A stretch of 62,355 nt of DNA from a virus (taxonomy: Duplodnaviria; Heunggongvirae; Uroviricota; Caudoviricetes). The position numbers are program-made. Each line of letters begins with the position of its first letter. Position 1 is the stretch's first letter. The stretch is taken from IMG/VR virus record IMGVR_UViG_2534682166_000005; one strand, written 5' to 3'. This document shows, piece after piece, positions 52,023 to 55,000 of the stretch.

Positions 52023-55000
52023 TGACAAGAAGCACAGGTATTAACAATAGCTTTCATGGTGATACGAATCAGTGGCTAAAAAAGGCGACTTTAAGCCTAC
52101 CCAGAAAGAGGTTGACCAAGCTATTACTCGCTTGAAAAAAGTAACTTTTAGCGGAGTTACATGGACCGGAAGTGAGGGACGAACCCCAATCTGGTTTAAA
52201 TTGGATCTCAAAGCTTTTGATGAAATTGGCAACCCAATCACAGGCATAAGATTTATGCTTCACTGGCGTCCTCCTATCGTTGAAGGGGTGGATATAGTGA
52301 AGATTTCATTTGTGATGTTTCTTCATGACAGGCGCATTTACGCGCTTGATCCGTACCCTGCGGATAACAAGCCACACCGTAATAAATCTATAGTGAACCA
52401 TCCAGATTTTGTTGAGGTGGCTCGAGGTCCTCACTATCACATGTACTTCGAATCAGCTGGGGAAGAAATTGCACTTAAGCTTGAAACGAACATCAAGCCA
52501 GATGATTTTTTTGGCTACTGGAATTATTTTTGCGAGGCGCTTAATATCATATATGAAGGCAGCCCACCTTTACCTAATCAAGATAAATCAGGTCAGTTAT
52601 CATGGGAAATGTAACGTGTTCAACAGTCATATCTAAGCTCGGGTTTGAATGCCACCCAATGAGCGACACGTTGCTGCGCGTTATTAGTCCATTCACATAC
52701 TACGATGATTGTGAGCAGATAAGTGTATTCGTTCAAGAGATGAGTGGTCAGTATAGGGTTACAGACTACTGCGATACATTGATGAATATTGAATCACGCG
52801 GCATCCACCTGACTAAAAAGAAAATTGATCTGATCAGGTCATCACTCGCTTCGCAAGGAATTTCATTAAATGACTCTGGAGAGATATCTGCGTGGGCAGA
52901 TGAGTCGTCCGTTGGACAGGTAACTGCAAATGTTATTCGTGGTGGGATTCTTGCATCCGCCCAAACTGCTGATTGGTATGCTGAGGTCAAAGACGATAAG
53001 TTCGAAAAATGTGTAATCAGTTACTTAAAATCAGCAGGGCTTGGGAAGCGACTAGCCTTAAAGGAAAAAGTGAAAGGTATTAGTGGGCATAACATTACTG
53101 TTCCGTTAACGCTAAGGAATGAGTCTCGACTAATACCACCAAAACGCGGGTTTACGGTAAGCCTTGCCAGCAGTAAGGGATGGAATACTGCCCACTCAAC
53201 AGTTGGGAAGATTGTTGACTTAAGTCAGGTCGTTCCTGACATAAACAATAGATTTGTAATAGTTGACAGCGATGGGTTAACACCTGAGCTACAGCAACTA
53301 TCACTACTATTTAATGATACCGCACGAGTGTTGCCATTCCATACCAGAGACTCTTGGATTGAGTCTCTGGTAGCCTAGAAAAACCCGGCCTCAGCGCCGG
53401 GTTTTCTTTGCCTCACCCCCCCACCTAAAGACACATAACCAAATGTATTTATTGAAAAATAAATAGATACAACTCACTAAACATCGCAATTCAGATCTCT
53501 CGATCACCTCCCAAGCCACTCAACCCTGCAAAAAATAAATCCATATAAAAAACATACAGATAACCATCTGCGGTGATAAATTATCTCTGGCGGTGTTGAC
53601 ATAAATACCACTGGCGGTGATACTAAACACATCAGCAGGACGCACTACTCACCAGGGCGGTGAATATACAACGATTCAAATATGAATCTACGGCGCTGAC
53701 AAAGCGCAATAACCAAAGTGAACTTTGGGGTGTGGTGAAGGGTTCATGGACGGGAATATGTCGCACGTAAAGCGGCGGGGCCTGCGGGACTATTGCCGAA
53801 TTGAAGTAGGCCGAAACAGGTCGAAATGGGTCTCCCACCTACCACACCACCAAAGTTCATCAGGAGGTCTATATGACACGCAGAACTCAGTTCAAAGGCA
53901 ATTCACGCTCTCATCGTCGTGAGCGTTTAAAGGCAAAGGCATTAGCTAACGGCGTGCTGGCCCGCGAAGAAGCAATAAGTTCAGAAGTATTACACCGCCC
54001 TACTCTAAGCAGAGCGCAGATTCAGGCTAAAGGTACTCACGAAACGCCTGAGCGCATAGAAGACGCTAAGCCAATTAAGTTCATGGCACAGGACGTGATC
54101 TGGCAACAGAAAGAATACAGACGCAATCTGGAGCGAGCAGCCATTGTGTACGCGAATGAGTTTGGACATAAGCAACCAGAAACTGGTGTATGTCTTCCAA
54201 ACGTAGCCATTTACGCGGCAGGCTACCGGAAATCAAAACAACTGACGGCGAGGTGATTGATGACCACGCCTTCAGTTTTGCCGCAAAAATTATGGCGTCC
54301 GCTTGCAGAGATTAAAAACTTCGTTGAAAAAATGCCTGATGGAGTTCGCCTTACGGAAGTTACTAAAAAAGTTAAGACATTTGCCGAACTGTCAGGAAAG
54401 GAGAGAAACCAGCTCATAGATTTTATCGATAAACGGGAAAGCATCATTGTATTTAAGGTCAGAAAAGAAGGTTCTGGTAACGGAGTAACCTTTTTCCGCC
54501 ACAAAAAATATGGATATCCCAAACGGGAAGGAAACGTCACAATCATTAAGGACCTTCAATCAAAATTATGTACCAGATGCGGGCAGACAAAATCAGTCAA
54601 TGATTTTTATTCAGATGCCAGCAAGCGTGACGGGAGAGCCATTTATTGCAAGAAGTGCGAATCTGCAATGAAACGCTCACGCAGAGAATGCAACAAATTA
54701 ATTCTGCAACAACAGGAACCTGAAATGAATAACCTCAAAGCAGTTTCACCTTCACCAGAAATACTCAGAAAACAGGCTGAAGAATTGCTGAAAGCCGCCG
54801 AAATTGCGGAGAAAAAACGCCAGGAAGATGATGCATTCAACAAAAAACTTGCGCCCTTAAAACTTGAAATTCTTCAGGCCGCCGGAAAAATGCAGCTTAA
54901 ACTGGACGAATTCATCGACTGTATGGATGAAATGAATAAAGCAGTTCAGAAGCTTAAAGAGCTGACCGCCTGATATTAATAAATTGCAACTACCGGAGTT

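Follow-up and report, generated by a model that had tools for sequence, protein, structure and literature searches.

A two-gene cassette in the rexAB position of a lambda-immunity prophage of Escherichia coli O104:H4, a candidate lysogen-expressed defence pair

What takes the place of rexAB in a prophage that has otherwise kept the lambda immunity region, and could the replacement still serve the lysogen against other phages? The question is raised by a stretch of 62,355 nucleotides (IMG/VR virus record IMGVR_UViG_2534682166_000005, called the window below), which is 100% identical to E. coli O104:H4 chromosomes, where it belongs to a 933W-like lambdoid element that is not a Shiga toxin (Stx) prophage. 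Between the cI repressor gene and the terminator that precedes oL, it carries two overlapping genes, here named A and B, which a first-pass annotation had proposed as a candidate new exclusion or anti-phage system. The best explanation appears to be a lysogen-expressed, two-protein anti-phage defence, a reading of function and mechanism that is favoured here with modest confidence. The claim of novelty has to be withdrawn, since the family is already listed by two published computational screens and the hotspot in which it lies had already been described.

The cassette replaces rexAB exactly, from the cI stop codon to the terminator timm that is shared with lambda, and in the same orientation as cI. 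Homology to lambda, HK97 and PhiR5_2 ends at the cI stop codon (52021-52025) and restarts at 53377-53386. The flanks are indeed of lambda type, as had been stated for cI, oR, oL and pL: lambda and the window agree at 97.1% of nucleotides over the segment with cro, oR and cI (51012-52025) and at 89.5% over the terminator, oL and pL (53377-53663). The clean terminator noticed just before oL is the lambda timm itself. Its hairpin CCCGGC/GCCGGG, followed by TTTTCTTT (53384-53409), folds with -20.2 kcal/mol (z = -4.1; none of 200 shuffled sequences folds as well), and both hairpin and T-tract are base-for-base the same in lambda, after rexB, and in phage ev207. Both genes are intact between these anchors, and their reported sizes and stop/start overlap are borne out by the open reading frame (ORF) listing and by the NCBI Prokaryotic Genome Annotation Pipeline (PGAP), which calls identical A and B genes in the E. 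coli O104:H4 chromosome. Judging from the layout, the overlap is compatible with translational coupling. Two details of the first description need adjustment. The span 52026-53409 is right for the cassette but not for the coding part, which starts only at 52072, after a short spacer. The pair was also called visibly AT-richer than cI; the direction is correct but the difference is marginal, with a GC content of 42.2% in A and 43.5% in B versus 45.4% in cI. In the spacer, a GGTGA placed 9 nt ahead of the start codon of gene A weakly resembles a Shine-Dalgarno sequence. Together with the first ~45 nt of gene A, the spacer is still 88% identical to ev207.

From sequence comparison, A and B are real genes and not chance ORFs, because their lengths are kept (178-181 aa for A, 258 aa for B) in homologues of 60-90% identity and because both are under strong purifying selection, with a ratio of nonsynonymous to synonymous divergence (pN/pS) of ~0.13-0.17. 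Compared with the homologue of Pantoea latae, pN is 0.135 for A and 0.107 for B, and pS is ~0.80, with synonymous sites saturated. Homologues of A keep its GTG start and its MAKK N-terminus, and A diverges faster than B in all comparisons. ORFs on the minus strand within the cassette are short, and Rfam gave no credible structured RNA over 52000-53400. The last codons of gene B, directly ahead of its stop codon and the terminator, contain a perfect 12-bp inverted repeat (53342-53372, plus strand; TACCAGAGACTC and GAGTCTCTGGTA separated by 7 nt). A role of this repeat as a self-immunity or processing element was considered and set aside; the ev207 allele does not conserve it, and it may be a coincidence.

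The position itself is informative. Owen et al. 2021 (PMC8585504), with reference to Degnan et al. 2007, describe the stretch between cI and N as a hotspot of mosaicism, where rexAB and the defence gene bstA are found, presumably on the strongly transcribed repressor promoter. A survey of the cI-timm slot in other E. coli prophages with a lambda-type cI, as had been suggested in the first pass, revealed at least six other types of cargo: rexAB, HicA/HicB(DUF1902), NYN plus PIN, PIN alone, DUF6932, and several groups of one, two or three hypothetical genes, among them HK97 gp49/gp48 and, in PhiR5_2, a gene for a 253-aa protein. A genuine HicAB pair occupies the slot in mEp234, HK106 and E. coli prophages. 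The A-B cassette is likewise variable cargo between conserved anchors, next to a repressor gene. Being placed upstream of pL, on the strand of cI, it can be read only by transcripts from pRM or pRE; pL itself points away from the cassette, toward N (53873-54256). No terminator-like site was found between cI and gene A. This, together with the position on the cI strand, makes it likely that A and B are expressed in the lysogen by readthrough from cI, as far as the layout allows one to judge. The spacer between cI and A has no promoter-like site, and promoter-like sites within the cassette, where an analogue of lambda pLIT was looked for, do not exceed the shuffled expectation (5 found versus 5.8 expected).

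The two proteins were said to carry no recognisable motif, which does not hold for B. Residues 30-112 match Pfam DUF1828 (PF08861) with 40.9 bits, for a threshold of 22. The profile and fold searches that had been called for resolve B into two parts, whereas A gave no match to a solved fold. The N-terminal DUF1828 domain of B (~residues 1-120) resembles type III secretion chaperones in its fold, and the C-terminal DUF1829-like domain (~residues 130-258) has the alpha-beta-beta-beta-alpha-beta arrangement of the PD-(D/E)xK restriction-endonuclease fold. Pfam DUF1829 does not match B itself at E <= 1, but distant B homologues pass its threshold of 22.2 (L016 with 23.4 bits, L017 with 29.1 bits; L numbers designate the loci examined). 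Distant phage homologues of B exceed the Pfam thresholds for both DUF1828 and DUF1829, the latter belonging to the PDDEXK clan. For a B allele of 51% identity, DUF1829 is moreover given by HHpred at 98.8% probability in Table S5 of DefensePredictor (PMC13092281). In PHROGs, B falls in phrog_1960 (E 3e-119).

The nuclease-fold domain of B looks atypical. An alignment across distant homologues does not conserve the canonical D...(D/E)xK signature; in the C-terminal domain, only G159, S161, H163 and D206 are invariant. H163 stands at the position expected for the first aspartate, and the presumptive (D/E)xK strand has no conserved charged residue; a variant active site is conceivable. A Ser-His-Asp hydrolase (S161, H163, D206) was also considered for B and rejected, because the G-x-S-G-H of B departs from the G-x-S-x-G nucleophile elbow and the domain folds like a nuclease. 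In the N-terminal domain, the invariant residues are C6, C17, D36, D55, D58 and G93-E94.

Protein A is more difficult to place. Pfam DUF6978 (PF22398) reaches 23.6 bits, below its gathering threshold of 29.6, and covers the C-terminal half only; at E < 0.01, seven of the 33 representatives of the A family match it. PHROGs assigns A to phrog_2017 (E 7e-74), the function of which is not annotated, and NCBIfam has no match for either A or B. The family is rare: a profile search of 1.84 billion cluster representatives retrieved 42 relatives at E <= 1e-3. Its hallmark is a histidine motif, D93, H102-x-N104 and G-x-H121-x-H123. In the family alignment W31, R88, H121, H123 and F153 are invariant, and K22, D93, H102, N104, P168 and Q175 nearly so; a smaller alignment to which phage homologues were added keeps K22, R88, H121, H123, F153 and N158 invariant. 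Structures of A and B were predicted as two monomers. The AlphaFold model of A is confident, with a predicted local distance difference test (pLDDT) score of 87.2 and a predicted template modelling (pTM) score of 0.83, and consists of a beta-rich core with two helices and of a C-terminal tail that is disordered yet conserved (P168...SGQ175). Comparison of this model with solved structures gave no fold match. Sequence searches of the PDB with A and B singly and with their family profiles found no true match either, the sole apparent profile match, a designed repeat protein, being judged spurious. A His-Me/HNH nuclease might be suspected from the H-x-N and H-x-H motifs near a beta-beta-alpha element in A, but this reading was abandoned, as there is no fold or profile match and the helix has no conserved residue.

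PADLOC finds no named defence system in A and B, and only weak matches to its candidate PDC-M24. The profile PDC-M24A, PDLC04538 is matched by residues 98-160 of A only (E 3.8e-4, 18.8 bits), and PDC-M24B, PDLC04540 by residues 5-169 of B (E 5.4e-7, 27.5 bits). Distant phage homologues of B score better on PDC-M24B, down to E 4.5e-13, and eight of the 33 A-family representatives match PDLC04533 (best E 1.5e-6). The PDC collection comprises 145 computational candidates, gathered by "guilt by embedding" in BREX, DISARM and type I restriction-modification loci (Payne et al. 2024, bioRxiv 10.1101/2024.01.29.577857).

The window allele of the cassette is present at full length in 61 of 5426 complete E. 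coli genomes. A megablast search of 50,697 phage records covers its flanks only, and a search of plasmids found no copy. Among the phage records only a sister allele (40% identity for A, 51% for B) is present. It takes this slot, downstream of another cI, in phages ev207, ev017, PhiR63_2, PhiR57_1 and Stx1_121427, and also in ECOR13 phages. This allele occurs in 239-241 of the 5426 complete E. coli genomes (~4%), among them Nissle 1917, the type strain ATCC 11775 and 83972, and it is at least 99% identical across 241 genomes.

Further loci show that the two genes belong together. The pairing was followed in eight genome loci, three distant phages and 11 metagenome contigs that reach past A. 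In every locus examined A directly precedes B on the same strand, usually with an overlap (~4 to 13 nt). Seven of the genome loci are full-length and come from GTDB genomes of Pantoea, Providencia (two), Yersinia, Xenorhabdus, Thorsellia and Izhakiella; in all of them A directly precedes and overlaps B. The eighth is a 518-bp contig labelled Actinomadura, with fragments of A and B in the same order, and is probably a contamination. A repressor gene lies upstream of the pair in all seven full-length loci, with an HTH domain and, in most of them, an S24 peptidase-like C-terminal part as judged by cI similarity; an N-like gene is recognisable downstream in several. In Providencia stuartii (L008, 5052-5393) and Izhakiella (L013, 5044-5385), the repressor gene and A are separated by a gene for a DUF3024 protein of 113 aa (E 2.6e-27), another variable element of this slot. 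Profile searches gave the three distant phages with an overlapping A-then-B pair. The pair is downstream of a CI-like or HTH repressor in two of them, Pseudomonas phage VB_PaD_phPA-G and a Helicobacter pametensis prophage; in the third, Burkholderia phage phi644-2 (gp48/gp47), its place is the immunity region, where no repressor is annotated.

The metagenome sample consisted of nine distant A representatives on 13 contigs. In 11 of the 13, A is followed by a gene of ~230-250 aa, with a 4-nt overlap in ten and a 59-nt gap in the other (L022). DUF1828 is recorded for this second gene in nine contigs. The other two contigs of the sample end inside it. The pair follows an S24 repressor in L023 and L024 and an HTH_3 repressor in L032. 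In L025 and L027 it abuts an McrB-like AAA protein (PDC-M26A, E 1.5e-41), and in L025 (1554-6479), where the subsequent genes are complete, the McrB-like gene is followed by genes for a DUF2357/PDDEXK_7 protein and then for a Schlafen AlbA_2 protein. In L026, the gene after the pair has a weak, sub-threshold match to MrcB_N. As an observation apart, L025 and L027 have the appearance of a compact defence island with no visible repressor.

Several lines of evidence thus converge on defence: the slot, in which rexAB, bstA and the other cargo are found; the A-B pairing and the recurrent position after a repressor gene; the McrBC-like neighbours, the PDC-M24 matches, the nuclease fold of B and the DefensePredictor listing described below; the purifying selection; and the presence of the sister allele in prophage 3 of Nissle 1917. 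According to this explanation, A and B would form a two-gene moron operon, swapped in for rexAB between the end of cI and timm. It would be read by transcripts running through from cI, initiated at pRM in the lysogen and at pRE during establishment, and stopped at timm, so that A and B would be made whenever the prophage is repressed. Their function would be prophage-encoded exclusion or abortive infection. B would act as the effector, or as a nucleic-acid-handling subunit, through its DUF1829 nuclease-fold domain, and the chaperone-like DUF1828 domain could hold a partner peptide or sense a ligand and would be the point at which B is controlled. A would be the obligate partner of B, as a sensor, regulator or co-catalyst, and possibly docks by its C-terminal tail onto the chaperone-like domain.

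Among the alternatives, an addiction module of toxin-antitoxin type survives best, while remaining unlikely. Either B or A would then be toxic and the other would neutralise it, the prophage being stabilised and exclusion being at most a by-product. The recurrence of HicAB, or of PIN/NYN RNases, in the same slot of other prophages fits such a module, as do two small overlapping genes in one operon; neither A nor B, however, matches a known toxin family. The conserved tail of A and the chaperone-like domain of B suggest a tight complex, and DUF1829 is known from the antitoxin-like DS-6B protein of the validated HipAD system, but no HTH, RHH, AbrB or other DNA-binding antitoxin domain is seen in A or B. 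The cassette also has no promoter of its own above chance and rides the repressor transcript. Besides, toxin-antitoxin and defence functions are not mutually exclusive.

A role as a lysogeny accessory, not aimed at other phages, is judged slightly less likely still. The pair would tune induction, lysogenisation or excision, or process prophage or host DNA. Its occurrence behind unrelated types of repressor (S24-type CI, HTH_3) in phages of gamma- and epsilon-proteobacteria, and in the immunity region of a beta-proteobacterial phage, is compatible with this view, and transcripts from pRE would express it at the time of the lysis-lysogeny decision. Yet the slot is freely swapped with unrelated cargo (rexAB, HicAB, NYN/PIN, bstA) with no change of immunity, the pair is also found beside McrBC-like and Schlafen genes with no visible repressor adjacent, and two defence predictors flag it. 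Finally, it is very improbable that the cassette is neutral or decaying, or that it serves an ordinary function of the lytic cycle and has no part in the lysogen: no function has been demonstrated and only 61 of the 5426 genomes carry the cassette, but selection is strongly purifying with synonymous sites saturated, gene lengths and the overlapping architecture are conserved across bacterial classes, the sister allele is nearly invariant in its 241 genomes, and early lytic transcripts miss a cassette placed upstream of pL on the cI strand.

A bolder version of the defence explanation can also be formulated. A mechanistically new and widespread repressor-linked defence, in which A, as a new-fold protein whose histidine cluster forms an active or metal site, and B, with its chaperone-like domain and non-canonical PD-(D/E)xK domain, would detect and stop superinfecting phages and spare their own prophage, is considered possible but rather doubtful. 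What is already known is the general kind, namely variable defence cargo on the repressor transcript, often with nuclease-fold effectors. The idea of A and B as candidate defence genes is not new either, PADLOC and DefensePredictor having flagged the family, and it will not surprise a specialist. The components themselves are nevertheless not part of any validated system, and A is without a solved structural relative. If the defence explanation is true, the pair adds a new protein architecture to the prophage defences that ride the repressor transcript, and it would be active in medically relevant strains: the window allele is found in the 2011 outbreak lineage O104:H4, and the sister allele in the probiotic Nissle 1917, in the asymptomatic bacteriuria strain 83972 and in the type strain. 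It would then matter for host range in phage therapy, for how Stx phages spread and for the fact that Nissle 1917 resists lambdoid phages. With clean boundaries at the cI stop codon and at timm, the cassette can easily be transplanted into lambda.

The coordinates of the cassette and of its surroundings are collected in Table 1.

Table 1. Features of the cassette and of the adjoining immunity region, in positions of the window
Feature	Position	Strand	Basis or remark
cII	50576-50872	-	ORF listing
cro	51011-51211	-	ORF listing
cI repressor gene (lambda immunity)	51312-52025	+	237-aa ORF; outside the swapped module
cI-A spacer, 46 nt	52026-52071	+	Sequence; left edge of the swapped module
Gene A, 180 aa, GTG start	52072-52614	+	ORF listing; PGAP WP_001074607.1 (hypothetical protein)
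Gene B, 258 aa, ATG start	52602-53378	+	ORF listing; PGAP WP_000528776.1 (DUF1828 domain-containing protein)
A/B overlap, 13 nt	52602-52614	+	ATGGGAAATGTAA; A stop (TAA) and B start (ATG)
Intrinsic terminator, lambda timm homologue	53379-53409	+	Right edge of the swapped module
oL1-3 operators	53563-53622	+	Operator repeats
pL promoter, TTGACA-17-GATACT	53596-53624		Plus strand; 10/12 consensus matches

Several observations concern the rest of the prophage. The N antitermination gene, of the 933W/HK97 type, is an intact ORF of 127 aa (53873-54256, plus strand), of which RefSeq O104:H4 annotates only the last 69 nt, as an incomplete "regulator" pseudogene; the gene appears to have been missed by that annotation. 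On the other side of cI, Rfam gives a sub-threshold match to Hrs13, an Hfq-regulated small RNA, at 50559-50631 (plus strand; E 3.8e-4, with 28.3 bits where the gathering score is 52). The matched segment runs antisense to the 3' end of cII, at the position of the lambda OOP RNA, and probably represents an antisense RNA of the OOP type. At 49581-49666 and 50353-50505 there are direct repeats 41-49 nt long, with two 100% identical copies spaced by 90 nt and diverged ones at a distance of 750-770 nt; a tandem 16-mer is found at 50409-50440. All of these are situated inside and upstream of a 360-aa gene of the replication region and code for repeated HQPQQPEADWVNP peptides; iterons, an origin or a duplication could explain them. 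Other lysogen-type morons of this prophage (window ~1-46000; RefSeq annotation NC_018658.1 2542000-2572000) are hokD, a second Hok/Gef toxin, a Doc-family toxin, a RelE/ParE toxin with an HTH partner, the Cor exclusion lipoprotein and a Lom/Ail outer-membrane protein. A SASA esterase is encoded downstream of Q, at the position of stx in Stx phages.

Comparison with known systems starts naturally with lambda RexAB, which shares with the A-B cassette the slot, the orientation, the timm end, the two-gene organisation and, presumably, expression in the lysogen. The likeness stops there, and the first-pass statement that A and B are unlike RexA and RexB is fully supported. BLASTP of A and B against lambda RexA and RexB gives a best E of 0.9, and no Rex-related match is found in Pfam, PADLOC, PHROGs or NCBIfam. 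RexB is a polytopic membrane protein, whereas B combines a chaperone-like domain with a nuclease fold; the 19-aa Kyte-Doolittle hydropathy peaks at 1.22 in A and at 0.79 in B, compared with 2.39 in RexB, and neither A nor B has a transmembrane segment. The lack of homology, the absence of a membrane protein and the different folds exclude a Rex-like ion-channel mechanism for A-B. BstA, from Salmonella phage BTP1 and relatives, is comparable as a defence gene conserved directly downstream of the prophage repressor, with which it presumably shares a promoter. BstA is, however, one protein without relation to A or B, and its self-immunity depends on a DNA-encoded element, aba; no aba-like element was identified at the cassette.

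Other parallels concern the domains. Can2/Card1 and NucC combine a sensor domain with a PD-(D/E)xK nuclease, but the N-terminal domain of B is chaperone-like and not CARF, no cyclase or other signal generator is near the cassette, and the canonical catalytic residues are not conserved in B. HipAD (DS-6), a validated two-gene E. coli defence system, contains a DUF1829 domain in DS-6B, where it is combined with DUF3037 and a HipA-type kinase; the cassette has no kinase, and the partner of B is DUF6978-like. In the papers searched, no discussion of DUF1828 or DUF6978 in a defence context was found. In PDC-M24, both components are weakly matched in the same order, a DUF6978-like A followed by a DUF1828/DUF1829 B. 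Since the matches are weak, the enterobacterial prophage pair looks like a distant branch of PDC-M24, and it lies in a prophage immunity region and not in an embedded restriction-modification or BREX locus.

The family has also been picked up by DefensePredictor (DeWeirdt et al., Science 2026, PMC13092281), the Tables S5/S10 of which list the two proteins of the sister allele, WP_000968518.1 and WP_001062368.1, as "Predicted novel defense gene" with log-odds of ~4.9-6.3. The cluster representative of WP_001062368.1 is WP_001074607.1, i.e., gene A of the window (PMC13092281). This listing is a machine-learning prediction, and the allelic pair is absent from Table S6, which gives the units cloned and screened. 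In Nissle 1917 (L028, NZ_CP022686.1 4789150-4790456), the two proteins of this pair are encoded after the repressor gene of a defective lambdoid prophage beside icd. This is prophage 3, to which Bury et al. 2018 (PMC5987069) link resistance against lambda and Stx phages, noting that a factor not identified by them acts in addition to the cloned repressor. Prophage 3 carries a sister of the cassette, and if the bolder, mechanistically new reading of A-B as a defence turns out to be true, the pair would also be this factor acting against lambda and Stx phages.

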